Positions 1-22,614 of a DNA stretch of 64,000 nucleotides are shown in pieces; the stretch's first letter is position 1, and every line of letters starts with the position of its first letter. The stretch lies in the NCBI GenBank assembly GCA_963775685.1, contig CAVZJV010000014.1:1248001-1312000 (forward strand), given 5' to 3'. A program made the translations under genes and the position numbers. Under the pieces are notes generated by a model that had not been told where the DNA came from, ran no database searches, and was given only the letters and a program-made list of their open reading frames with translations. This DNA comes from Candidatus Bathyarchaeota archaeon (lineage in GTDB: Archaea; Thermoproteota; Bathyarchaeia; Bathyarchaeales; Bathycorpusculaceae).

Positions 1-238
1 TCGCTTTTCGCCAAAACATATCCGCCAAACATGCACGCTGCAGATCCAACTGCACAAAGCCCAATTCCGTATACCCACACCCTAATCCTCAAACTAACAC
101 AGAAGACAACAAACCCCCTCGCGCCACTATCAAACAAGAAACAAAAAAATCCCAAAACCAGAAAACAAAAACGTAAACAGTCCAAGGAAGTTGCATGGCA
201 GAAAAACACAATCACAAATAAATAAGGAACAAGTTTCT

Positions 239-9904: not shown

Positions 9905-10695
9905 GCGATTTTTCCACTGAAAGTCCAGTCTTTTGTTGAGTATTTTTCTTTGTAGAGGATGTTTGCAGTTTCTTTTTCTGCATGTGTTAATTCGCTTGGT
10001 TCGAGCTGAATTTTGAGGATTGCCTTGAAACCCTGGGCAAGAGCATTAGCTATAGTGCTGGGAGAGATTTGGTGCCCTAATTCGTTTTGGATGCTTGTGA
10101 TTTTGTGTTTAGCGATATCAGTTGCTTGAGTGCAGGATGCATTATTGAGCTTGAGGACCGAAAACATTTTGGGTAAATCTACAATTCGCAGTACTGTGCC
10201 ATGTTGAAGCACGACACATCGGGTAATTGTTTGGCTACTTCCCGAGATTTTTTTGCCATTAACCGTCAGGTTCGGGCAGTTTTTGGCGTTTCCACTGCTA
10301 AAATCAGCTGGAACACCCAAAAGCCTTAGTGCATCGGTTATTGCCCCGTAAATCTGCAGGTAAACGCTGGTTATGTCACCTATACCAAAATCTGCGACTT
10401 TGGCGATTACGCTGTAGGTTACTTCTCCCTCAAAATCGTGATAAACGGTGCCGCCTCCACTAATCCGCCTGACAATGTCAATGCCCTGCTTCTTGCAAGA
10501 GTCAAGGTAAACCTCGTTCTCAGAGTTCTGGTTCTTGCCTATGCTGACGGCAGACGGTTGCCAACGATAGAACCGCAACGTATTTGGCACCTGACCAGCT
10601 ATTCTTGCTTTTAAAATTGTTTCGTCGATCGCCATGTTCATGAAGGCATCGTTGGTTTCTAAGGGCAATAACCGCCAAGTATTCATGTCACTCAA
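9901..10695 (-). CDS. Lipoate-protein ligase A family protein
   Basis: NMAIDE, RRISGGGTVYHD, GKKISGS, LQHGT motifs. Confidence 0.92.
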   Translation of the reverse strand: MSDMNTWRLLPLETNDAFMNMAIDETILKARIAGQVPNTLRFYRWQPSAVSIGKNQNSENEVYLDSCKKQGIDIVRRISGGGTVYHDFEGEVTYSVIAKVADFGIGDITSVYLQIYGAITDALRLLGVPADFSSGNAKNCPNLTVNGKKISGSSQTITRCVVLQHGTVLRIVDLPKMFSVLKLNNASCTQATDIAKHKITSIQNELGHQISPSTIANALAQGFKAILKIQLEPSELTHAEKETANILYKEKYSTKDWTFSGKIA

Positions 10696-10829
10696 TCCTT
10701 TTCTTATGGAAAATTGTAGTAGGGCTTAAAACTGTTATGCAATAGAATGCCTTTTGAAGTAAAAGTTGCGACTATTCATGAGGAATAGATAAATGCTTAA
10801 AAACCAAGCATTGCATCTCTAAAGAAGAG

Positions 10830-11720
10830 ATGAAAAAAATGAAGATTATCTCTGGTCCCGCGTCCAAAGCGCTTGCTGAAGCGGTTTCAGCATTATCTGG
10901 TTTCCCAAATGTACCTGTTGTTTCAAAGGTTTTTCCCGATGGAGAATCCTATGTACGTTTGGATGGAAACGTTCAAGGTGAAGACGTGGCAATTGTTCAG
11001 ACGACTTGTCCACCCATGCAGGATGGCAGGCTTTTCCAATTAGCGTTCATGGCTGACGCGGCTAAACGTGGCGGTGCAAAAAAAGTCACTACCGTTGTGC
11101 CTTACTTGGCTTATGCTCGGCAAGACAAAATGTTTCTCTCTGGCGAGGGCATAAGCGTGGAAACCATCGCGCGCATGCTCAAAGCTTCTGGAATCGACCA
11201 GTTTCTAACAATTAACATTCATTCTGAACCCACGTTGGGGAATTTTCCGTTTCCAGCCAAAACCCTAAGCGCCATTCCACTCATTGCGGAATACTTTGTC
11301 GACAAAGGTCACAAAGGGGCATTCGCGCTTTCACCCGACAAAGGCGCTATGTACATCGCCCAGCAAGCCCAAGTAGTTCTTTGTGGCGACGCAGGACACC
11401 TCAACAAAACTCGCGACCGTTACACGGGCCAAACTGCCCAAACCGCCGAGGGTCTAAACGTGAAAGACCAAACCGTCATAATTCTAGATGACATCGTTAG
11501 CACAGGAGGCACAATCGTTGGTGCTGCAAAAATCCTCAGGGAACAAGGAGCTAGACATGTTTTCTGCGGTTGCGTCCATGGTTTGCTAATTGGCAATGCT
11601 GAGAGGCGGATTTTGGATGCGGGTGTGGAGGAGATTGTTGGAACCGACAGCGTTCCCGGAAGCGTGAGTAAGGTTTCGTTGGCACCACTTATCAGTCAAG
11701 AGCTTAAGGCGCAACAGTAG
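10830..11720 (+). CDS. prs: Ribose-phosphate pyrophosphokinase
   Basis: FPDGE, PYLAYARQD, SPDKGA, ILDDIVSTGGT. Confidence 0.96.
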   Translation: MKKMKIISGPASKALAEAVSALSGFPNVPVVSKVFPDGESYVRLDGNVQGEDVAIVQTTCPPMQDGRLFQLAFMADAAKRGGAKKVTTVVPYLAYARQDKMFLSGEGISVETIARMLKASGIDQFLTINIHSEPTLGNFPFPAKTLSAIPLIAEYFVDKGHKGAFALSPDKGAMYIAQQAQVVLCGDAGHLNKTRDRYTGQTAQTAEGLNVKDQTVIILDDIVSTGGTIVGAAKILREQGARHVFCGCVHGLLIGNAERRILDAGVEEIVGTDSVPGSVSKVSLAPLISQELKAQQ

Positions 11721-12793
11721 TGCCTAAACTCTTCTTTTTGCTCTCAGGCGAGAACGAAACACTGCCCAGCGCGGAAGTTAAGGCGATTCTGGAGGCGGAA
11801 GGGTATCGCTTCTCGAATGTTTCAGAGTTTGACCAGATTCTGCGGTTAGAAGCGGAAGTGGGCAGCGTCCAACCTGTACAGGTTCGCTCTGCTTACACTC
11901 GGTTTTGCGCTCTTGAACTTTTTGTGGCAAACGCAAACTTTATTGACATTGCAAAAGCAGCCGCGGAAACAGATTTCAAAGCCGTCCTTAAGCCCGGCGA
12001 AAAGTTTGTTGTGCGGATAAATAGGATAAAAAACTATGCTGACCAAGTAAACTCGATGGTTCTAGAGGGTATGTTGGGTAAGCAAATATTAAACGGCACT
12101 GATGGAACTAAAGTCAGCTTGAAAAACTCAGATAAGACCTTCATAGGAATAATAACCGATGAAAAACTCATTTTAGGCTTAAAGCTAACTGATATAACCA
12201 GCAAAACCTTCTCTGAACAGCGTCCACGCAAAAAACCGTTTTTCCACCCATCTGCAATGCCCTCAAAAATGGCGCGGTGCATGGTAAATTTGGCACATGC
12301 AAAAGCAGAATCGGTGCTACTTGACCCTTTCTGTGGAACAGGCACCTCGCTCATAGAAGCCACCTACATCGGTTGCCGAGCAGTGGGAATAGATGCCCAG
12401 AGACGCATGATTTTGGGCACACAGAAAAACTTGCGTTTCTTCAACATCTCAGCGGAAGGATTAGTGCTTGCAGATTCACGAAAAACCCCTTTCTCTAAAG
12501 TCGATTGTATAATTACTGATCCACCCTATGGTCGCTCATCGAGCACACTTAAATCAACTACTAAGCAGTTGGTAGAAGAAGTTTTAGCATCCTCGCGGGA
12601 GTTGCTTGGGGTAGGGCAACGAATTTGTATAGCCCTTCCGATACAGGTGAACGGATGTGGAAAAACAGAGAGATTAGCTGAAGTACTCAAGTCTCATATT
12701 GCTAACTTAGGATTTAAAACTATTGAGTCACACAAGGTCTATATCCACCGAAGCCTGACAAGAGAAATAATGGTTTATGAAAAAGTCAGTTAA
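11720..12793 (+). CDS. trm11: tRNA (guanine10-N2)-methyltransferase (THUMP + MTase); the residues after ICIA are element-encoded
   Basis: THUMP N-terminus, PFFHPSAM, LDPFCGTG, TDPPYG, HRSLTR; coupled to prs stop. Confidence 0.9.
   Translation: MPKLFFLLSGENETLPSAEVKAILEAEGYRFSNVSEFDQILRLEAEVGSVQPVQVRSAYTRFCALELFVANANFIDIAKAAAETDFKAVLKPGEKFVVRINRIKNYADQVNSMVLEGMLGKQILNGTDGTKVSLKNSDKTFIGIITDEKLILGLKLTDITSKTFSEQRPRKKPFFHPSAMPSKMARCMVNLAHAKAESVLLDPFCGTGTSLIEATYIGCRAVGIDAQRRMILGTQKNLRFFNISAEGLVLADSRKTPFSKVDCIITDPPYGRSSSTLKSTTKQLVEEVLASSRELLGVGQRICIALPIQVNGCGKTERLAEVLKSHIANLGFKTIESHKVYIHRSLTREIMVYEKVS
12623..12633 (+). repeat. attL core ATTTGTATAGC
   Basis: Identical to 21557-21567; both encode ICIA in the trm11 frame. 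Confidence 0.88.
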
Positions 12794-12800
12794 AAACATA

Positions 12801-12875
12801 GTAGCGAGTTTCTTATTGTAGCAATTTTTTAGGATAAACCCATTGTAGCAGAAAGTAGCCCTTATTTTGTGTAGC
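12801..12875 (+). repeat. Cluster of five GTAGC motifs, two as ATTGTAGCA; candidate arm-type or accessory binding sites
   Basis: GTAGC at 12801, 12818, 12845, 12855, 12871. Confidence 0.4.
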
Positions 12876-13157
12876 AGTTTTCTAAGTGAATAATAATATT
12901 GTATGGGTTACTTCTCTCTTTACTTGAAGCTGGAAAGATTCTTAAAGAAAACTTTGTTGTCTTTCTATCAATTATCGAAAACGTTAGTGCAGCACCGCAC
13001 GAATGCAGAAGCGATACCCACTTGTCTTAATTAGCTAACGAAATGGTCTTAATGGTACTTTCAGATTATTACTGTTTGGTAAACCTCTTAGTAGAGAAAC
13101 TTATCTCTTAAGTTGGTTAAAACCCTCAGTTTGAGGCTTAGAATTCATGTGGATAAG

Positions 13158-13781
13158 TTAGAGGTTAATAATCCCAATCTTTGTTTGAATCTGAATTGGG
13201 ATTGTAGCATTTAAGAAAGGAAAACGCTGTTTGTTTTCATCTTTATGCTCTATAATGTTAATCCCAGAAGAGGTAATTTCTGCCCATAACCACAATTTAT
13301 CCATAGTGCTTTCAATTTTTATTAGGTTTTCTTGTTCAAGATATTTTGTATCGAAGTCAACTATATTTTCTGGAACATTCAAGAGTTCAATAACTTGTTC
13401 CCTTTTGATTATGTTATCTTTAGGATTTGTTTCTGCTTTTTTATAGAGTATTGTTAGAATGGAGTGTCTAATTTGATCATGGGAAAGAATGGAATTATCT
13501 TTATCTATTAGTTCTTTTTTTGGTTTTCGATGGTCAAGTATGTCAATTCGGCAAACAATGAAACCAGCACTTAAGAAGGGTATACCTAAAATTAGAAGCC
13601 AAAAGTCGAAGAAAAAACCATAAGATGCTATCAAAGAACTTAGAGAAACCAAAATTAATCCAATTATATATAATGGTCCAATTTCATCTTTTCCAAGCTT
13701 CATATTTAATTTTCTCCTTCTCCTAATGTTACATTCTACGTTATTCAGTTTTAAGTTTTTGCCATTGATTATTTTTGGCAT
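13158..13781 (-). CDS. Cargo protein: two N-terminal TM helices plus winged-helix-like C-terminal domain
   Basis: Hydrophobic segments, then IRHSILTILY...KYLEQENLIK...EITSSG wHTH-like pattern; start uncertain. Confidence 0.6.
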   Translation of the reverse strand: MPKIINGKNLKLNNVECNIRRRRKLNMKLGKDEIGPLYIIGLILVSLSSLIASYGFFFDFWLLILGIPFLSAGFIVCRIDILDHRKPKKELIDKDNSILSHDQIRHSILTILYKKAETNPKDNIIKREQVIELLNVPENIVDFDTKYLEQENLIKIESTMDKLWLWAEITSSGINIIEHKDENKQRFPFLNATIPIQIQTKIGIINL

Positions 13782-14335
13782 TGAATCATGGCTCTCTTGT
13801 TAATGTTACCAACATTGCAAATTGCTCTTAAGACAACTTCAAGAGCATTACAAAAATGAAATTCTATAAACATATAAATTGGTTCATCCTTCTTCCAAGA
13901 TTCATAAATGGCTTTCTTTTTAGAGTTTGCATGTGCCAATCCACCGTAAATAAAAATATCTATAAGCTCTCCTTTAGTTGGAGTAAATCCGTATAAATTC
14001 ATGTTAATTTTAGTATCAAGATAATTGTTTAATCCGTTTCTCTGGTCTAAAAATTCTTTTTTAAGCTCTGACGAAATAGGTAATTTTTCAAAACTTTCGC
14101 TTAATCGGTGAAAAGAACTTTTTTCATTGTCTTGAGTAAAGAAGCGATAGGTTAAAACAAAGGCATCAATTGCATCTTGGTCAGGAAGTATCCTTGTCAT
14201 CTTAACCTCTTCACCCTCATTTAAAGTTACGCTTGCTGAAAGTTTACCTGTTTCTTTCAAGTGTTTTACAAAACGTGTTTTCAGTAGTTTTTCTGCTTTT
14301 TCGTTGAAGAGTTTGAGAGATGAGAGTTCATCCAT
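13769..14335 (-). CDS. Cargo hypothetical protein, possibly HEPN-like
   Basis: 188-aa ORF with IYGGLAHAN motif and helical C-terminus; AT-rich. Confidence 0.55.
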   Translation of the reverse strand: MDELSSLKLFNEKAEKLLKTRFVKHLKETGKLSASVTLNEGEEVKMTRILPDQDAIDAFVLTYRFFTQDNEKSSFHRLSESFEKLPISSELKKEFLDQRNGLNNYLDTKINMNLYGFTPTKGELIDIFIYGGLAHANSKKKAIYESWKKDEPIYMFIEFHFCNALEVVLRAICNVGNINKRAMIQCQK

Positions 14336-14418
14336 GCGTTTACTCTAACATTTAGTATTAAAAGCTTCGGCTTTTAGTTTTTGCTATCAAGAGAGAAACT
14401 TAGATTATTTGACCTAAT

Positions 14419-14856
14419 TCATACTTCTCGTTCTAATCTATCCCCAAAATGGAGTATCGGAACAGCTTTGTAAAATCCAGCTTTCCTATTATCTGGTTCC
14501 AGTGGATATGTACCTCTTAGCTCTTGCCACTTCTCATAATCAGTTAAGTTAGGGTTAAGCTCTATATGCAAACTTAGACGTAATTCTTTGTCTCTAACTG
14601 CTCGCCATTCAGCTAATTCCTCGTCATGCTTCTGTCGAGTCTCGGCTGAGAGGTCGTAATCTTGGTAAAACTTATGGGTACTGACATACTCGTCATACTG
14701 CTCTTTAGTGAAGCCCTTGAACCTGTATCTTATTTGTTTTAAGGTCTTCGCGTCTTGCTTCTCTTGCTCTGAAGCTTCTATTATGATAAAATTAGTTTGT
14801 TCTTGTAAAACTTCCATATTCTTAACTCCTATTGGTCTGGTCTCAAATGGGTACAA
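14419..14856 (-). CDS. Element hypothetical protein (charged)
   Basis: ORF co-oriented with element genes; true start may be the second Met. Confidence 0.6.
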   Translation of the reverse strand: MYPFETRPIGVKNMEVLQEQTNFIIIEASEQEKQDAKTLKQIRYRFKGFTKEQYDEYVSTHKFYQDYDLSAETRQKHDEELAEWRAVRDKELRLSLHIELNPNLTDYEKWQELRGTYPLEPDNRKAGFYKAVPILHFGDRLEREV

Positions 14857-14908
14857 GAATAAGGGAAAGAAGGCATAACCTTACTCTTGTACCGCTTGAG
14901 ATGTGACT

Positions 14909-15199
14909 CTACTTCTTCTTCTTTTGATATTGAGCTATTACGCGCCCAACATCAATACTAACTGCCCGTGTTGCTGCATTGTGAAAAGATGAGGTGGTTG
15001 ACGGTAGAATAGGTGTGAGCTTATCTATTACCGACTGTCTACCCTCTTGTTTGGCTTGCTCAGCTAACTTAGCGGTTTCTGTTCGATTAATAGCTAAGTT
15101 TCTTTCAAGTTTACCCTTTGCCTGTAGCAACTCTGCTTCTCGTCTTTTGAGAGCTTGAATGTCTCTTCGTACTTCTTCTACAGTAGGTACAGTAGGCAT
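14909..15199 (-). CDS. Element coiled-coil protein
   Basis: Heptad-like VRRDIQALKRREAELLQAKGKLE; start overlaps upstream stop. Confidence 0.65.
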   Translation of the reverse strand: MPTVPTVEEVRRDIQALKRREAELLQAKGKLERNLAINRTETAKLAEQAKQEGRQSVIDKLTPILPSTTSSFHNAATRAVSIDVGRVIAQYQKKKK

Positions 15200-15453
15200 T
15201 AGACGATGTCTCCTATCTGTAGCTCGTCTGCTTTTCTGTAAACATGCTCCCGTAAATTACATGCTGCCTTGTACTCTGGATTTACGCTGCGATAGTATTT
15301 CGCGGTCTTGCCTGTTTCCTTGAGATATCTTAGCTGTGCTTTTACCTTGACCTTACTATAAGCGATAGGTCTGCACCTGTCGCAGTACTTCTGATTTCCC
15401 TTGAGTGCAGTCCCACAGTTGCAAACATGTCTCAGCGTCTCTTGAAAGGTCAT
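15199..15453 (-). CDS. Element zinc-finger protein
   Basis: CNCG...KYCDRC; ATGA overlap with upstream gene. Confidence 0.7.
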   Translation of the reverse strand: MTFQETLRHVCNCGTALKGNQKYCDRCRPIAYSKVKVKAQLRYLKETGKTAKYYRSVNPEYKAACNLREHVYRKADELQIGDIV

Positions 15454-16145
15454 TGCTTCTTTCCCCCGAGGAAGGAACCTAACCCAAAACCCTTCTTCTT
15501 TGGTGTTTCTTTTTTAGCTACCTGTTTAGTTTTCAAAACTGCATCATATTCGGCAGTAGTAGGTTGGCGAAGTCTTCCATCGTTAGCATCTTTAACGAAC
15601 CCATACTTCTCCCAATAACCAGCGTCTTGTGCAGCTAATCCTAACCCCACATCAATTATGGTGCACGGAATGGGCTTAGCTCGATTAACTATAGGGTCTG
15701 GAGAAACTTTGCACTTTATCGTAAAGACATGAGATACGATTTCACCGTACATGTCTGAATTCTGTGTCTTATGGGTAGCTACTGCTGTCTCTCCATCATC
15801 TGTAAAGACGACATCGCTTGTCATGTATAAGGTACCATCGTATAGGTCCCAGCGGTTCTTTTGGGGGACATATTTTAAGACGTATCTTCCGTCAGAAAAA
15901 TAAAGATACTTGTCCATTACTATTACGCCCTCATCATAGACATTAACTAAAGCTCTGTACCTCTCTAATAATTTAGAAAGCTTAACTTTGTCTTCACGGT
16001 GCATTTCACTATTAACGTAAGGTCCATCTTTAAGTGAGTACGCTGTTGGGTTGTTGACTTTACTGTTTAAGTATTCTATCTCTTTTTGAAGAGCTAATCT
16101 CTTAGCTTTGATTTCTTCGTTAGTCAGAGTTGGTTTGTCACTCAT
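15450..16145 (-). CDS. Element hypothetical protein (231 aa)
   Basis: Long ORF with purine-rich RBS-like sequence upstream; N-terminal coiled coil, basic C-terminus; no family recognised. Confidence 0.7.
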   Translation of the reverse strand: MSDKPTLTNEEIKAKRLALQKEIEYLNSKVNNPTAYSLKDGPYVNSEMHREDKVKLSKLLERYRALVNVYDEGVIVMDKYLYFSDGRYVLKYVPQKNRWDLYDGTLYMTSDVVFTDDGETAVATHKTQNSDMYGEIVSHVFTIKCKVSPDPIVNRAKPIPCTIIDVGLGLAAQDAGYWEKYGFVKDANDGRLRQPTTAEYDAVLKTKQVAKKETPKKKGFGLGSFLGGKKQ

Positions 16146-16251
16146 TGGTTGTTTCCCCCTCTGCTAAGTGCTCCTGATTTAACAGGGATTATTTTCCTAC
16201 TTTGAATTATTGATTTGCTGGTTCCGCATTTCATATATTTTTGCCTCTTTT

Positions 16252-16509
16252 TTACACTGTATACTTAACTACAATTTTCTCGGTGAAAGACTCCTGCAGT
16301 CCCTCATCGCTGTTTAAAGACCCTTGAATGCTCTTGTAGTTACTAAGAGCAATCTTAGTCTGAAAGGACATCTCTTTATTGCAGAGTTTCAAACTCTCCA
16401 ACAAAACAGCTATCTGTTCCTGTAAGGCGTTCTCTCTAAGATGCATATAATAGAGCTTAACGTCAATGTCTCGGAAGACTAATTTCCTGAGTGCTTGAGA
16501 GAACTTCAA
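16252..16509 (-). CDS. Element hypothetical protein
   Basis: TTG start overlaps the stop of the upstream zinc-finger ORF. Confidence 0.55.
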   Translation of the reverse strand: MKFSQALRKLVFRDIDVKLYYMHLRENALQEQIAVLLESLKLCNKEMSFQTKIALSNYKSIQGSLNSDEGLQESFTEKIVVKYTV

Positions 16510-16667
16510 TAAAATCTCCCCTGTTTATTCCGCTTCCTCGCATTTCCAGCGTTAGTTACTTTTCTGCAACTTTCTGTGCAGAATACTTTGTCTATAGTGT
16601 AGGTCTGGAAATTCCCTTTGCATCCAAGACATACTTTGTTTAGGATTGTGTTTGATATGTTTTCCAT
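16506..16667 (-). CDS. Small zinc-finger protein (53 aa, below ORF-track cutoff)
   Basis: Hand translation MENISNTILNKVCLGCKGNFQTYTIDKVFCTESCRK...; CxxC...FCxxxC; overlaps both neighbours. Confidence 0.7.
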   Translation of the reverse strand: MENISNTILNKVCLGCKGNFQTYTIDKVFCTESCRKVTNAGNARKRNKQGRFY

Positions 16668-17131
16668 CACTCGAAAGTCCTCCGATAATCTAAATACTTC
16701 TTATACTCATGAATGCGAATGAAGCACTGTGGACATGTGGGTTCTAATGAGCTTCTCATATAATCGCAAAGTTCGCACTCAACCTTTGGGTCGCCTACCT
16801 CTAAAAATCCTTGAATCTCGCCAACAGTTATGCCATGAACAAGCGGTAAATCTTCACCTAAATATAGATGAATCTCCATAAAGTCAACGTCTACACCTAA
16901 CACTTTGTAAAACTTCTTCCACGATTGATAGGCTTCCTTGACTTGTGGAATGGTCTTACCGTAAAACCAGAGATTGATAAGACTCTCTAAGTTCTCTTCT
17001 GTCTTTACAACTTGACTAACGTTAGCCTTTGTAGCTGCTTCTATCTTGGACTGTAACTCTCGCTCTTTCTTTTGCTGTTGATAGTGTCTCTGACGCGCGG
17101 CACTGTCTGGGTACACTCTCTTTCTGCCCAT
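16667..17131 (-). CDS. Element putative DNA-binding protein with C-terminal zinc finger
   Basis: Basic MGRKRVYPDSAARQRHY N-terminus; CELC...CPQC. Confidence 0.7.
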   Translation of the reverse strand: MGRKRVYPDSAARQRHYQQQKKERELQSKIEAATKANVSQVVKTEENLESLINLWFYGKTIPQVKEAYQSWKKFYKVLGVDVDFMEIHLYLGEDLPLVHGITVGEIQGFLEVGDPKVECELCDYMRSSLEPTCPQCFIRIHEYKKYLDYRRTFE

Positions 17132-17221
17132 TCAAACTGCATCTCCGATAATGTCTGATTTCTGTTTTCGAGCGTCAATTCTAATGTGATTATTGCCAAC
17201 CAAGAATAATTCCCTCTTTCC

Positions 17222-17374
17222 CTACTTACTCTTAGAATCTTTGAGTAATTTTAAAGCTCTAAGCACTACACCCTGAAGGGGTTCTGAAGAGTATTCTCTT
17301 AGCTCTTTAGCTAACTGAACAGTACTCTTATCAATCGCTAAACACGTAGTCTTAGATTCATTATTCTCTTTCAT
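17222..17374 (-). CDS. Small RHH-like regulator (50 aa, below ORF-track cutoff)
   Basis: Hand translation MKENNESKTTCLAIDKSTVQLAKELREYSSEPLQGVVLRALKLLKDSKSK; TTTATA upstream on minus strand (~17433-17438). Confidence 0.55.
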   Translation of the reverse strand: MKENNESKTTCLAIDKSTVQLAKELREYSSEPLQGVVLRALKLLKDSKSK

Positions 17375-17756
17375 TATTAATCACTAATATATCTCTAATT
17401 AATCTCTGATAATAGATAACCGTTAAAGTGCCTATAAAGGATTATGGTCTTTTCTTAATCACTATAGAAACTTAGCTACTTTCTTCTCCCTCTCTGACTA
17501 TATGGTCGTGTTTTGAGCGACAGAATCAACCTTTATCCAACCTTCTTTAGCTAAATAACCTTCTTAATGGTCATGTTCGCATTGCGAATTGCTAACCAAT
17601 TAGACTTGACCTTTTTCTTAGATTCTTTAGCTAATTGCTGCCTTCTCTGTGCCAATTTCATATCGCAACTTTGATCTAATAACTTTGTGCCAATACCAGA
17701 GCTAAAGCCTTGATTCCCTGAATAGAACTCTCACTAAGGTGATTCTCAATGAGAAT

Positions 17757-18120
17757 TACTGTGTTCACTGACAGTATTTTTATTAAGAAAGAAGCCAAAA
17801 TCATACTTCTTTGTCTAATTGCTCCCTTTGTCGGTCTTGGCACTCTGAGTGCATTTTTCATTGATAAACCGACCTGTTTCAAGCTCTGTTTGCAATTTAA
17901 TGGGCTTGCCTACCCGATTTATCTGATAAATTTTTTCATTGATAGATAGAAGCTCAGAATAAGGGTATTCGTTTAATTGCTCCCCTCATTGGTCGTTGTA
18001 CTCTGAGTACATTTTTTATTGATAGAGATAGGCTCAGATTAAGCGTATTCATTCAATTACTCTCTTTATTGGTCACGGTGGTGTGACCACATTCTTTCTT
18101 GATAGAAAGAGGCTCAAAGG
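17757..18120. repeat. Non-coding tandem array (77-80 bp period) of hairpin-containing units
   Basis: 5-3-5 palindromes at 17840, 17918, 17998, 18078, each followed 8 nt later by TTGATA; shared AATTRCTCYCT...GGTC linker in three units; degenerate unit ending 17775. Confidence 0.85.
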
Positions 18121-18169
18121 ATTACCGAGAAAACTTAGCTAAAAACAGATTCAGAACCATATTTCTTTG

Positions 18170-18337
18170 TTATTGACTGAAAGCTCTTCGACTGCCCCTT
18201 ACACGGTAAGATTCGCGTTGCTCTTCCTCACGCTTCAAGGCTTTCAAGTGTCGTATTCTCTCTGCCTCGTCTTTATTATTGTCAACAATGACAACGTGAG
18301 AGCAGTCTGATTTGCCTTTAAATTTGTTGTTAATCAT
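18170..18337 (-). CDS. Small charged element protein (55 aa)
   Basis: Hand translation MINNKFKGKSDCSHVVIVDNNKDEAERIRHLKALKREEEQRE... Confidence 0.45.
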   Translation of the reverse strand: MINNKFKGKSDCSHVVIVDNNKDEAERIRHLKALKREEEQRESYRVRGSRRAFSQ

Positions 18338-18350
18338 TCAATTATCCATC

Positions 18351-19106
18351 CTAAACAGTCCCTTTTCCAGTGGGACTTAACTCGTTAAACTTGAGCAAAA
18401 GGACAATTCTTCTAAGAATATTCAATCTTTTTCTCTCTCCTATATGTTGCCATAAGGCGTTACCTGCTCTATCAGTCACTACTATTCTTTCTATATAATG
18501 AGAGTCTTTCTTGCTACAGGTGATTGGTGGGTTTTTTCCATCACTGATTGTCATTTCTTTCCCTATCTTGATAATTTCCAATATCTTCAGTCTATTGATG
18601 GACGCTTCCACTTCTATGGCAGTTAAGTTAGTTTGATATCTCTTACTGAAGGGTTTAAGCAGTTTGAAGAGTGCGCTATCAAATAAGGCTCGAACAGTTG
18701 TGTGTAGGTTATCCTCTTCTGCATGAATGTAAGTTGGAATTAGCTGGATACGTTCTTTCTTAAGTTTCTCCTTCTCTTCTTTAGACATGTTTGGAAAACT
18801 AATGCTGAGAACCCACTCGTCTTTATGTTCTGGGTCTTTACGATGGAAGTATTCTATCTTAGAATCCATAATGTCCTTATTCATGTGGGTTCGTTCTTTA
18901 GGGTTAGTAACTTCTAAAAGAATCCTTTTTCCTTTAACTGGAATAACTATGTCAACTGCGTTATGATGGTCGAATGAATATTCAGAGTGGTCAAAACTGT
19001 TATGGTCGCACTTTAAGCCTAACTTCTGCTCTATGAAGTGGACATGTGCCATCTCTGCTGGAATACCGCTCAGATAGTTTATGTTGAAGTTATTCATTTT
19101 ACTCAT
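18351..19106 (-). CDS. PD-(D/E)XK nuclease-like protein
   Basis: GIPAE helix, AVDIVI and LLEVTN in restriction-endonuclease-fold spacing; canonical Lys not evident. Confidence 0.55.
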   Translation of the reverse strand: MSKMNNFNINYLSGIPAEMAHVHFIEQKLGLKCDHNSFDHSEYSFDHHNAVDIVIPVKGKRILLEVTNPKERTHMNKDIMDSKIEYFHRKDPEHKDEWVLSISFPNMSKEEKEKLKKERIQLIPTYIHAEEDNLHTTVRALFDSALFKLLKPFSKRYQTNLTAIEVEASINRLKILEIIKIGKEMTISDGKNPPITCSKKDSHYIERIVVTDRAGNALWQHIGERKRLNILRRIVLLLKFNELSPTGKGTV

Positions 19107-19263
19107 TCCTTGTCGAATGCGCTTGATTAGAGGTTAAGGGTGACAAGCCCCTCTCCTCATTAAAATCAAGCTGGGTTGTTAACAATTACAAACCGAAGAA
19201 ACGACTTAAAAGGAATTATGGTCAAAACTAAAATGGTCTACACTTGTGTTCTGCCAATAGCCA

Positions 19264-19334
19264 CTGTTTCAAGCTCCGTTTTCAATTTAAGAGCCTTATC
19301 GGTAGCTGTGACCGCGTCACACCTATGTTTGATA
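19264..19334. repeat. Dispersed copy of the array unit
   Basis: 19264-19290 matches 17874-17900 at 25/27; GTGAC-CGC-GTCAC and TTGATA follow in the same register. Confidence 0.8.
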
Positions 19335-19532
19335 CTTTTGGTTCTATTGATAGTTGTTCTATCTAACCCTACTTTCTTAATTATCTCGGTTCGAGTGTTC
19401 CAAGAGAATTGAGAGAGGATGTCTGTGAAATGTTGTTTAATGGTTTTTTAAAAAGCAAAAATCCAGCCCTTATCTAACCTTCTTTTCTAAATTACTATTT
19501 ATTATGGGGCTATTGCCATTGGCAATTAAATC

Positions 19533-19976
19533 TCAACCCGAAACAGTTGGGTGAGGAATGCTAAACTTGAAGCCTAAGAATTTCTGTTTCCTTATTCGCT
19601 TTTCCTCATAGGACTCGGCGTTTGGGTTATGTCTTCTATACCGATCTCCATGTCTTAATTTCTCTTCTTTTGAATGGGTTTCTCGATACTGCTTATTCCA
19701 TTCATGGTAGTTCTCTTTATTCAGTTCAAAGTACTCTTTGCTTCCTACACTATGATTAGCACAATACCTCATTTGTCTCTTGCTTAAGAAGCGCCCACAA
19801 ACTTCACATCTACGCTGAGACCAAGAAATCAAATCACTACTACTTGACTTATACACTCGATAGCCTGTACTAAAACAGCCATCGCCAATACTATGAGTTG
19901 TTGTATTCATCTCACTCATCCTCACAATAGTAATATCGGAATAATGCTTAAAAGGATTTTTGGGTATTATATTCAA
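19533..19976 (-). CDS. Element zinc-finger protein with basic helical tail
   Basis: RRCEVCGRFLSKRQMRYCANH; start uncertain. Confidence 0.65.
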   Translation of the reverse strand: MNIIPKNPFKHYSDITIVRMSEMNTTTHSIGDGCFSTGYRVYKSSSSDLISWSQRRCEVCGRFLSKRQMRYCANHSVGSKEYFELNKENYHEWNKQYRETHSKEEKLRHGDRYRRHNPNAESYEEKRIRKQKFLGFKFSIPHPTVSG

Positions 19977-20253
19977 TTTGGAATAATGACAAGACTAAAA
20001 AATTTTTGGGAGCATTCTGTTTCCCATTACATGATCGAAAAGGTGGGGCGAGGTAGTTTGTATGCTATTATTAAGTAACATCTACCCAGTATTCCATTTC
20101 CCATTACGATTTTGAAATATCTTTCTTGAGAATAATTACAGATTGTTGTAGCCTTGTACTATTGTTATACAGTTGGGCTTATTCTCCATTCTCATATAGC
20201 CAATACCCATAGTAGAGGCTTTTCTTAGTAGTAGCATCAATAGCAGTAGTGAT

Positions 20254-21501
20254 CTAACGCCTCACCTTACCCTTAGGTTTAATCTCTGGTTCTTCTTCAT
20301 GAGCGTTAAGCTCTTCCTCAATCGCTCGCTCTAACCCTTCCCTGTTGATTTTGATGTTTCCATTATTGCTAAGTTTCCTAAGTAGAATGTCTACAGTGAG
20401 CTTCTCAGCAACAGCGTTATTCTGCCATGTGGTAACTTGAGCTGTTAGTTCCTTAACCTTTAATTCTAATTCGTTAAGCTTAGTCTCGTCTACCACTCGC
20501 ACACCTTCACTCAAGAACTCAAGGTCTGGGAGAGCTTGCTTATACTTAGATCGAAGCTGTTCAATTAATGGTCTGGAATAGGGAGCTTCTTCACCGCTAA
20601 CCTTTCTTCCCTTAATCTTCTTAATCCAGTTGATAGGACATCCAGCATTCTCTAAAGCTGTTTGAACTATACGTCTACCATCATGAAAAGTGAAGTTTGC
20701 ATTAGCTCTTTGCTCTAAAATGGTTGCTTTCTTTGCTATCATGCGTATAGTTAATGGTTCGCTTATGTTGCGTTTGACTGAGAGAAAAACATAGTCTTCG
20801 TTAGTCCACTTGTGACCAAAGTTCTTTTCCATCCATTCTCTATATTCAATAACTACTCTTTTTGCTTCGTTAGTTATGAAGGTCTCTTGCCTTACGCCTC
20901 TATACTTTCCCTTGCCATGACCCTTCACTAAATCAGAGGGTAAAGAGATGTGTGGACATTCTTGAGTTTCCCAACCCTCTTCAAAGTGATAGAATCTTAG
21001 CTTTGAGAGGGACTCTAAAGCTATTGCTGAAGTTGCACCTATCATAACGAGTGCTTGGTCTCTGGGGTTTCTGCATGCTTTGAATACTGCTAACCGAGTT
21101 TCTTTAGAGGGTACAGTGTGGCTTTCATTCTGTATGTATGGCATGGACCGACCAGCTTGCGCCTGAAGTTGTCGGTAATTTGTTCTAAAGAATCCTCTGA
21201 GACATTGAGCTATGTGCCACTTTCTTTTTTCTGGAAAGATAACTTTGGCATTCGCTAAACTGTCTAAGAGCTTCTCTGCCTCTAAGCTATTGTAATCTTT
21301 CTTTAGGTCTAACAACTGGTCAGGATTCAACCCAGACCAATTACAGAAATGATAAAGAGAGATGGCTGCGCTGCCCTGTCTACTGTGAAGAGTATTAAGA
21401 TAATTCATTACGCATTGATAGTTTTTAGCCCAACCATCTAATACTGTTAGCTCAGTGAAACCATACTTTAAATTCTTCTTTTTCGCTTCTACTATACCCA
21501 T
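20254..21501 (-). CDS. Tyrosine recombinase/integrase with atypical catalytic motifs
   Basis: N-terminal SAM-like core-binding region, RDQAL, VKGHGKG, FHDGRR (HxxR), APYS tyrosine, C-terminal coiled coil; adjacent to attR. Confidence 0.88.
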   Translation of the reverse strand: MGIVEAKKKNLKYGFTELTVLDGWAKNYQCVMNYLNTLHSRQGSAAISLYHFCNWSGLNPDQLLDLKKDYNSLEAEKLLDSLANAKVIFPEKRKWHIAQCLRGFFRTNYRQLQAQAGRSMPYIQNESHTVPSKETRLAVFKACRNPRDQALVMIGATSAIALESLSKLRFYHFEEGWETQECPHISLPSDLVKGHGKGKYRGVRQETFITNEAKRVVIEYREWMEKNFGHKWTNEDYVFLSVKRNISEPLTIRMIAKKATILEQRANANFTFHDGRRIVQTALENAGCPINWIKKIKGRKVSGEEAPYSRPLIEQLRSKYKQALPDLEFLSEGVRVVDETKLNELELKVKELTAQVTTWQNNAVAEKLTVDILLRKLSNNGNIKINREGLERAIEEELNAHEEEPEIKPKGKVRR

Positions 21502-21556
21502 GTGTCTCTCACTCTCAAGCGTTACCTATTATAGTTTCACCCTTATTAATTCACCT

Positions 21557-21567
21557 ATTTGTATAGC
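21557..21567 (+). repeat. attR core ATTTGTATAGC
   Basis: Direct repeat of 12623-12633. Confidence 0.88.
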
Positions 21568-21697
21568 TTCCCCCAAAACATTGAATATATCGCGTTTAGG
21601 CACTGACTTGGGCTATCGGCATGTTGAATCGCACTTTGCCTATATTCATCAGTCTTTGACGCGGGAGATTGCAGTGTTCGAAAAGGTGAATGTATGA
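21557..21697 (+). pseudogene. trm11: Displaced original 3' end of trm11
   Basis: ICIASPKTL...LGYRHVESHFAYIHQSLTREIAVFEKVNV*, 18/27 identical to the current Trm11 tail; stop overlaps rnz start (ATGA). Confidence 0.88.
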
Positions 21698-22614
21698 GTC
21701 TTCGTGTGGTGTTTTTGGGGACAAGTGGCAGCGTACCAACGCTAAAAAGAAGTCTACCCTCCGTCGTTGTGCAATGTCCGCGCGACCAATGGATGTTTGA
21801 CTGCGGCGAAAACGTACAACGGCAAATGATGCAAGCGAAAGTCAGTTTTCACCGTAAAATGAAAGTGTTCATTACTCATCTGCATGGCGATCACGTTTTG
21901 GGTTTGCCCGGACTATTGCAGACAATGGCATTGATGGGTCGCACCGAGCCAGTTCAGATTTATGGTCCAGTTGGGCTGAAGGATTTTCTTGTTTGTACCA
22001 AAGAAACACTCAACTTTGGCTTAACCTTCTCGGTTGAGATAAGCGAAATCCCTGCAGAAGGCATCGTTTGCAACGAAGAAGAATACAGAGTTATATCAAC
22101 TAAATCTAACCACGCTGTACAAAGCTATGCCTTTGCTTTTGTGGAAAAGCCGCGTCCAGGCAAGTTCTATCCAAAAAAAGCGTTGGCGCTTGGAGTTGCG
22201 GCGGGTGAGCTGTGGTCTAAGCTGCAAAGCGGCAAAGAAATTACTTTGGCGGATGGTAAGGTGATTAAACCAAGCGATGTTATGGGTCCTCTGCGGACTG
22301 GACGCAAAATCATCTACACAGGCGACACCAAACCCTTTGAGGCGTTCGCAAAATTCGCGCAGGGAGCAGATTTGGTGATTCATGATTGCACGTTTGACGA
22401 TTCTCTCACTGAGAAGGCAAATGTGGATGGACATTCAACGCCAACTCAAGCAGCTGAGCAAGCGAGGGCGGCTGGAGCAAAACAGTTGGTTCTGTCCCAC
22501 ATCAGCGCTCGGTACACAAACGCAGGGTTGCTTTTGGACCAAGCAAAAAAAGTCTTCCCCAAAAGCATACTTGCCGAGGATTTTATGGAGCTGGAGCTTC
22601 CCTTAAGCGAGTAG
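21694..22614 (+). CDS. rnz: Ribonuclease Z
   Basis: FLGTSGS, DCGE, THLHGDH, GP exosite, YTGDT, HST, HISARY. Confidence 0.96.
   Translation: MSLRVVFLGTSGSVPTLKRSLPSVVVQCPRDQWMFDCGENVQRQMMQAKVSFHRKMKVFITHLHGDHVLGLPGLLQTMALMGRTEPVQIYGPVGLKDFLVCTKETLNFGLTFSVEISEIPAEGIVCNEEEYRVISTKSNHAVQSYAFAFVEKPRPGKFYPKKALALGVAAGELWSKLQSGKEITLADGKVIKPSDVMGPLRTGRKIIYTGDTKPFEAFAKFAQGADLVIHDCTFDDSLTEKANVDGHSTPTQAAEQARAAGAKQLVLSHISARYTNAGLLLDQAKKVFPKSILAEDFMELELPLSE

Follow-up and report, generated by a model that had tools for sequence, protein, structure and literature searches.

A conserved array of sequence-variable 15-bp dyads around a nuclease-fold gene in an integrated element of a Bathyarchaeota archaeon

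The integrated element and its genes

The window, as the whole analysed stretch of 64,000 nucleotides is called here, contains an integrated element of ~8.9 kb (12739..21645, ends approximate). A hexamer shared by 12739 and 21640 marks the approximate element ends, with the crossover possibly lying further left. A trm11-like tRNA methyltransferase gene is split at its 3′ end by the insertion; similar pieces coding for the trm11-like C-terminus at 12700-12793 and 21590-21697 result in two versions of that C-terminus. No tRNA genes were found in the window. Via relatives of the protein encoded at 18351-19106, three further elements with units homologous to the array described below were identified, namely G118 (L039), G134 (L040) and the 1.65-kb metagenome contig L045.

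A tyrosine integrase is encoded on the minus strand at the right end of the element (20254..21501), without counterpart in G118 or G134, and a core module of six uncharacterised minus-strand genes (14419..17131) is common to the window element, G118 and G134. Two low-GC cargo genes at the left end (13158-14335) had no match in the G118 and G134 elements, which hold other cargo there. The array lies between the integrase and the core genes, around a gene with a predicted nuclease fold and a folded leader and next to a small ORF (17222..17374, minus strand, 50 aa) just past its end. The pattern of this ORF, recognised by eye and without library match, is presumably ribbon-helix-helix-like, and G118 has a 55-aa ORF in the corresponding position. 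A small Zn-finger-like gene (19533..19976, minus strand) abuts a unit of the array with its 3′ end. Its G134 counterpart (L040 10559-10918) has changed sides relative to the nuclease gene and likewise has a unit adjoining its 3′ end; hence, the gene precedes the nuclease gene in the window, follows it in G134 and is absent from G118. A paralogue of the gene was seen at the far end of the G134 core module.

Comparison of 11 element ORFs with Pfam and PHROGs yielded no convincing match other than the integrase; nine of the element ORFs scanned in NCBIfam gave no match, nor did the integrase. The longest ORFs of the element do not exceed 415 aa, no primase-SF3 helicase match was present among the 11 ORFs (Pfam, PHROGs), and no replication gene was recognisable in this set apart from the candidate nuclease-fold gene. 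As a whole, the element fits the class of cryptic integrated elements of Thaumarchaeota, which, in the available part of the source, are likewise small, integrase-bearing and made up mostly of unknown genes (PMC6563490); in that text, the word 'hairpin' occurs 0 times and no such array is described.

The gene at 18351..19106 (minus strand) encodes a 251-aa protein of an unnamed family of 65 clusters, with a PD-(D/E)XK nuclease fold predicted for the N-terminal ~160 aa. The structural model (pLDDT 83) matched the PD-(D/E)XK proteins AF1548, MspJI, EndoMS and Hjc, and residues D52, E65-x-T-N68 (E65, N68), K83 and D91 are invariant in the family. Atlas comparisons were treated as leads only, both for the nuclease (0.90, with a PDDEXK_3 cluster at rank 4) and for the 16667 protein (under 0.9); the 15450 protein gave a low-confidence fold (pLDDT 63) without clear match. 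A PDB sequence search returned only uL23 at E of 0.036 or above, and searches with the nuclease in Pfam and PADLOC revealed no match to a ToxN/CptN/TenpN-type toxin. Two distant family members (P0057, P0059) are fused to ParB domains. From one DNA sequencing run, only two 151-nt fragments of this gene were recovered.

A conserved folded leader is located 5′ of the nuclease gene (19121..19171, minus strand), with counterparts at L039 ~10939-10988 and in the matching place in L040, L045 and L049. Comparing the folds of the five loci by eye, the outer stem was found to be compensated, being of other sequence in L045 and L049 and still pairing. Unlike the dyad array, the leader resembles a genuine regulatory element made of RNA. 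Within the nuclease coding sequence, a 6-3-6 palindrome at 18852-18864, falling on conserved SKIEY codons, is identical in the window, G118 and L045.

Anatomy of the dyad units

The feature is real, conserved and larger than the first-pass annotation had noted. Six palindromes with a 5-bp stem and a 3-nt loop had been listed there, at 17576, 17743, 17840, 17918, 17998 and 18078, the last four spaced by 78, 80 and 80 bp; all of them are present with this spacing. In total, the window holds nine co-oriented units, seven in the main array and two upstream of the 18351-19106 gene. The main array (17536..18106) is given in plus orientation, which denotes the flank consensus and not a transcript, and its units are centred at 17582, 17662, 17749, 17846, 17924, 18004 and 18084. 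The corresponding dyads are at 17575..17589 (unit 1, with a CTTCTTT box at 17542-17548), 17655..17669 (unit 2), 17742..17756 (unit 3), 17839..17853 (unit 4), 17917..17931 (unit 5), 17997..18011 (unit 6) and 18077..18091 (unit 7), those of units 3, 5 and 6 being perfect 7-1-7 palindromes. Unit 2 is decayed, its flanks being intact and its symmetry lost, and it is intact in G118; the G118 orthologue of unit 1 has changed yet symmetric arms. The upstream units, also in plus orientation, lie at 19268..19336 (dyad 19307-19321, centre 19314), overlooked in the first-pass annotation, and at 19473..19541 (dyad 19512-19526, centre 19519), a position occupied in all four elements. Palindromes at 18198 and 18276 are without flank boxes and were left out of the units.

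After removal of mis-centred or weak sites (G134 9025, 9079 and 9472; L045 587) and of the sites at window 18204 and 18282, G118 9974, 10133 and 11043, and L045 528 and 542, 25 units aligned over 69 columns without internal gaps. Left of the dyad, and counted from its centre, the consensus has CTTCTTT (-40) and AATT (-29) boxes, followed by patches rich in T (-18) and in G/C (-12); the 15-bp dyad itself reads ATT-N4-N-N4-AAT and is followed by a T-tract. The outer 3 bp of the dyad are conserved, and the inner 4 bp are free in sequence but mirror-symmetric up to the centre. CTTCTTT with at most one mismatch was found exactly at -40 in 13/27 sites, compared with 8/3631 palindromes genome-wide, and at none of the neighbouring offsets. 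As the box keeps this exact position while the unit-to-unit spacing runs from 36 to 166 bp across elements, it is the distance within the unit that is fixed and not the period, and the ~80-bp period described previously is not kept across elements. In the same way, the T-rich 8-mer and TTGATA following the last four palindromes, and YGGTC-NNN preceding those at 17576, 17840, 17998 and 18078, were found in place, but the 8-mer with TTGATA and the GGTC are traits of the window's units and not of the family.

The supposed 3-nt loop has to be revised, as the bases flanking the centre (±1) are complementary in 19/24 sites, with three pair types, compared with 937/3631 (26%) of genome palindromes; the site is thus a 7-1-7 dyad rather than a 5-3-5 hairpin. 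Its length is invariant at 15 bp, and 19 distinct inner half-sites occur among 24 sites, up to seven of them within one element. An iteron or operator array with one conserved binding sequence was rejected on this count, although the flank boxes are conserved. The dyad 15-mers form weak DNA hairpins (-1.0 to -4.0 kcal/mol), so a protein would be needed to open them. Decayed units were observed at window 17662 and G118 9974. One-base register shifts as a source of the arms were not significant (6 vs. 4.8, p=0.35). A ~10.5-bp A/T phasing is visible in the flanks, but its periodogram is broad (9-14 bp), and it was not counted as evidence.

With 13-17 stops in each of the six frames over 17501-18170, the array is non-coding, in line with the earlier reading. 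A short-ORF interpretation was rejected, a start codon being in register in some units only and a common frame being absent, as was a promoter interpretation, since sigma-70-like sites are no commoner than by chance and TATA does not occur in register. That the array is not CRISPR also holds: the units are only 62-73% alike over their whole length, near-identical repeats are missing and a 20-mer scan of the host assembly revealed no CRISPR-like array, which also speaks against a mini-array. No Rfam covariance model matched in 17000-19600, again agreeing with the earlier proposal, and the sole Rfam match in 14000-22000, at 20.5 bits, stayed far below its cut-off of 382. Repeats in another element of the same genome differ in sequence from the array units, and a profile built from the 19308 site and the four right-hand units matched these five sites only in the genome (E<0.9). 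The number of six palindromes in 17576-18120, a region chosen post hoc, was reached in 2/5000 dinucleotide shuffles; as five further 600-bp segments of the genome contain this number too, palindrome density alone is weak support, and the real support for the array comes from register and conservation.

Covariation and distribution among related elements

Two-sided changes in the dyads numbered 62, compared with 20.5 ± 3.5 in shuffles (0/500), where p-values are overstated because the units, drawn from four elements only (three in one genus and one 1.65-kb contig), are not independent. The covariation score was 0.805, compared with 0.11-0.19 for slid partners. As 24/25 alignment rows had been chosen with the palindrome known, tests blind to the dyad were performed. 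In the spacers of the four elements, GATT-N9-AATT frames had a complementary inner triplet in 8/8 cases vs. 6/132 genome-wide, and ATT-N9-AAT frames in 13/21 cases vs. 27/1838 genome-wide. A flank-only matrix was derived from three elements at a time and run on the one left out; of its 32 top sites, 22 were paired at ±2..4, a previously unlisted one in G134 among them. Outside the element, 1/69 high-scoring genome sites was paired. Both tests being blind to the dyad, the covariation indicated in the first-pass annotation is genuine across homologous elements. The further step to selection on structure was too strong: pairing is indeed kept, but copy-correction by template switching or diversifying operators would give the same pattern.

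Comparing four intact orthologous pairs between the window and G118, 20/36 positions of the inner 9 nt differ, vs. 32/156 in the left flanks and 37/186 third codon positions, an excess of the dyads over the flanks for which p=0.07 once one driving pair is removed. In two more orthologous pairs, one member is decayed. Of the chance palindromes in other parts of these two elements, mostly in coding DNA, 12 had changed and none had kept its pairing, from which it follows that general mutational correction is not the cause of the array.

In all four elements, units are located on both sides of the nuclease gene. The first-pass annotation had asked for co-occurrence with the integrase and with the 18351-19106 protein, which was found in part for the protein and not for the integrase. 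The window integrase had no tblastn match in L039 or L040, and the integrases differ among the three full elements; conversely, G026 has a 75-78% identical integrase at the same host junction, and no units. This implies that the array travels with the element core and not with the integrase. On the nuclease tree, units are present at 4/14 loci; a clade (100/99) unites three of the carriers, and G134 is placed separately, near L048, L049 and L050, whose nucleases are 47-50% identical, as close as that of G134 (51%), and whose partial flanks contain no units. Perfect 6-1-6 dyads beside the four array-bearing genes numbered 6, 7, 3 and 7 vs. 0.4-0.9 expected, and 0-2, without excess, beside 13 other family genes. 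The coupling of the units to the nuclease is only partial.

A covariance model run over 120 genus genomes (42 candidates scored each) recovered the training units and two single imperfect matches in G074 and G009, which are beside ordinary genes and were treated as chance. On six further loci, including the G598 nuclease locus, the model found no match. Viral contigs contained no relative of the nuclease, of the 15450 gene, of the 16667 gene or of the conserved upstream-unit motif, and tblastn against plasmid and phage collections gave no match.

Both the nuclease and the units are missing from four elements that carry the 15450 gene, one of which encodes a complete terminase large subunit. 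In G131 and G130, relatives of the 15450 gene adjoin a terminase large subunit gene, whole in the former and partial in the latter (L075 6203-12682; L074 6130-8492), which hints at a satellite-like family; a HATPase gene and a gene with a match to a PHROG topoisomerase family were also found in G131. In distant elements of the nuclease family, one to three copies of a 7-2-7 palindrome with invariant arms were seen upstream of the nuclease gene (L078 7018 and 7060; L081 8850, 8908 and 8951; also in L046), in G084 and G138 at a distance of no more than a few hundred bases; they are probably a shared operator. By eye, a non-coding block of ~150 bp seems common to L048 (downstream of the nuclease gene), L074 (~12770-12960) and L075 (~13740-13860), which are elements unlike one another in other respects; in two of the three, the block is next to the integrase. 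The nuclease gene of G118 (L039 ~10207-10918) and several core genes of G134 (L040 11395-11855) are each in two pieces, and these copies may be decaying while their dyads stay intact.

Nature of the sites and what they may do

Two options had been put forward in the first-pass annotation, a multi-unit structured RNA transcribed from the minus strand and an array of DNA hairpin origins or priming sites. The pattern of changes speaks for a DNA processing site rather than for a folded RNA of the minus strand. Since a loop of one base is too short for a hairpin to close, symmetry up to ±1 weighs against RNA: the pair concerned could not form in an RNA hairpin. Palindromes with a 1-nt and a 3-nt centre are equally enriched, 26 and 31 being found where about 8.5 would be expected. 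Of the 120 pairs at ±2..6, 118 are Watson-Crick, with all four pair types present and only 1 G-T. Across units, there is no pairing excess outside the dyad. Both outer stems with G-U pairs previously drawn on the minus strand can be drawn, but they are not common to the units and are dropped by RNAalifold, which retains six dyad pairs only. With folding of the units unremarkable against shuffles (mean z -0.7 on the plus strand and -1.1 on the minus strand), the multi-helix RNA on the minus strand did not hold up.

An RNA array of ~80 nt per unit, each with one short hairpin and single-stranded boxes acting as sponge, antitoxin or processing substrate, is nevertheless to be considered, if as an unlikely explanation. 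In that case, the plus strand would be the likelier one, being antisense to the element genes and U-rich, with a hairpin followed by a U-tract. The six pairs do covary with a 3-nt apex, and the few wobbles favour G-T over A-C on the plus strand by 7 to 1, a slight RNA-like signal on the strand opposite to the one first proposed. CTGA is strand-biased in the spacers of the window (8 vs. 3) and of G118 (8 vs. 1). A nuclease gene beside repeats also resembles the layout of type III toxin-antitoxin systems, in which a ToxN/CptN/TenpN-type toxin is preceded by near-identical pseudoknot repeats; here, no toxin match was obtained (Pfam, PADLOC), the repeats are diverged and they flank the gene on both sides, so membership was rejected. 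Against an RNA in general stand the ±1 complementarity (19/24), which is useless to a hairpin, the single G-T among 120 stem pairs, the missing second conserved helix, the unremarkable folding scores and the lack of an Rfam match in the region. Box C is absent from the array, CTGA is absent from L045, and the dyads evolve faster than their flanks, the opposite of what a constrained helix would do.

Symmetric change without any hairpin would also arise if the sites were operators or decoys for diversifying homodimeric DNA-binding proteins, e.g., repressors of a helper virus or of sister elements, where duplicated control modules and switches of specificity force double changes. Such operators would explain the Watson-Crick-only symmetry up to ±1, the fixed 15-bp length, the rigid flanks and the fast symmetric change, and the terminase large subunit carried by relatives of the element makes contact with a helper virus plausible. 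We regard this explanation as about as unlikely as an RNA array, since about 19 different half-sites would be needed among 24 sites, up to seven of them per element, and the operator-like palindromes of sister elements show the reverse pattern of invariant arms and variable centre; moreover, dyads show no clustering elsewhere in the genome, and no helper virus was found in the viral contigs. The 19533 gene occurs on either side of the nuclease gene and in both positions adjoins a unit with its 3′ end, which would suit integron-like recombination sites, where the units are joints for small gene cassettes and empty units accumulate. That dyads stand in exchanged flank contexts when the window is compared with G118 points the same way, as does the TT-N9-AA frame, which has the spacing of lambda-type core sites. 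Yet only one gene moves like this, the integrases differ among the three full elements, the integrase of G026 (75-78% identical, same site) is without units, no attC R boxes are in register and the single 6-7-bp stem is far shorter than that of attC, making cassette joints quite improbable. Very improbable, in our judgement, is an array without function, made up of tandem duplications in which the palindromes owe their perfection to spontaneous template switching. This process makes different but perfect orthologous palindromes in yeast, according to the available part of PMC5677150, and some units are decayed (17662; G118 9974); however, none of the 12 changed palindromes outside the array stayed perfect, the flank boxes and their exact distance persist where the nucleases are only 51% identical, and the dyad length is invariant.

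Among known systems, the closest parallels are partial, and the statements made here follow the available parts of the sources cited. The origins of pRN plasmids share with the array the setting in an archaeal mobile element, with a fold-back site downstream of a putative replication gene and a small repressor gene nearby; their stem-loops are less conserved than their flanks (PMC4234260), and here too structure is kept while sequence diverges beyond the flanks (20/36 vs. 32/156). pRN has one stem-loop of ~100 nt and a primase-helicase, whereas the present elements have 5-9 dyads of 15 bp each on both sides of a PD-(D/E)XK gene, symmetry runs to the centre and no primase or helicase was found; assignment to pRN-type origins fails on size, copy number and replication protein. 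Initiators of the MOBC type are PD-(D/E)XK proteins (PMC5714925), and a relaxase/oriT of this type (pAD1 TraX-type) resembles the locus in its fold and in the position of a putative DNA-processing initiator beside repeats. Unlike MOBC, there are no conjugation genes here, 0/42 nuclease-family members match Pfam Replic_Relax at E<=0.1, and a sequence-variable dyad array is not described for MOBC origins in that source. A mechanism that yields changed but perfect palindromes has been reported both for the circovirus 'melting-pot' origin, by template switching (PMC2690592), and for yeast, where correction of quasi-palindromes by template switching has this outcome (PMC5677150). The circovirus origin is, however, single, with a conserved loop octamer and an HUH Rep, and the yeast events are sporadic and without conserved flanks, both unlike the array.

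Integron attC arrays, archaeal ones included, are likewise co-oriented, sequence-variable and structure-conserved sites beside a tyrosine recombinase (10.1101/2022.02.06.479319). Here, R/L box pairs are absent, the stem is much shorter, most units are gene-less and the integrase is not shared among carriers; with at most one of each R''/R' box per strand in the main array and no outer helix, an attC array was rejected. In TIGR arrays of stem-loops, stems also diverge between units (10.64898/2026.09.09.750476), but in the present array the variation falls in the stem, which encloses no pair of spacers. Box C-N9-box D paired within 15 bp was found 0 times on either strand in the window, G118 and L045 and once in G134, no Nop match was present among the 11 element ORFs and the nuclease model matches PD-(D/E)XK folds, so TIGR-Tas was rejected as well. 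In agreement with the first-pass annotation, the open-access literature gave no described equivalent, and the array is apparently undescribed in that literature, supplements aside; the element tables supplementing PMC6563490 and PMC10541130 could list such elements.

The explanation we favour, and to which we give an even chance on the basis of sequence comparison, is that the array is a multi-copy, structure-defined replication origin or nick/resolution site, so that of the two initial options the DNA hairpin origin or priming array is the one favoured by the data, as a candidate role. A protein would recognise duplex DNA by the flanks and the ATT/AAT frame and would open the dyad into a short hairpin or cruciform, at which the DNA would be nicked or primed. 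Synthesis or repair across the site would then recopy one arm from the other, keeping symmetry while the sequence drifts. Extra units would arise by duplication and by recombination at the sites, and more units may give the excised element a replication advantage. The nuclease-fold protein is the leading candidate for the enzyme acting at the units. Points against this explanation are the weak hairpins of the dyad 15-mers, the partial coupling of units and nuclease, the four elements that have the 15450 gene but lack both, the 0/42 matches to Replic_Relax and the plus-strand lean of the wobbles.

In its most far-reaching form, the locus would be a new archaeal replicon or processing module, in which an unnamed PD-(D/E)XK initiator reads flanks and symmetry instead of sequence and cuts or primes at 7-1-7 dyads, a reaction that renews one arm by copying the other. 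We consider this tentative and, for now, unlikely. If true, it would provide a self-correcting, fast-drifting origin that is kept in each cycle, origins that multiply into arrays, and a non-HUH archaeal initiator with a symmetry-selective nuclease; such selectivity would make the nuclease a new class of DNA-processing enzyme. According to the accessible part of a review (PMC11389934), no archaeal relaxase has yet been identified.

Even strong covariation among arrayed repeats is no proof of RNA, and the ±1 pair, the scarcity of wobbles and the rate excess are cues by which DNA and RNA can be separated. The replication and movement of small integrated elements in uncultured archaea are largely unknown, with initiators that are mostly unrecognisable; the array provides for such an element a defined cis site with an unusual signature of fixed geometry, free sequence and symmetry to the centre.
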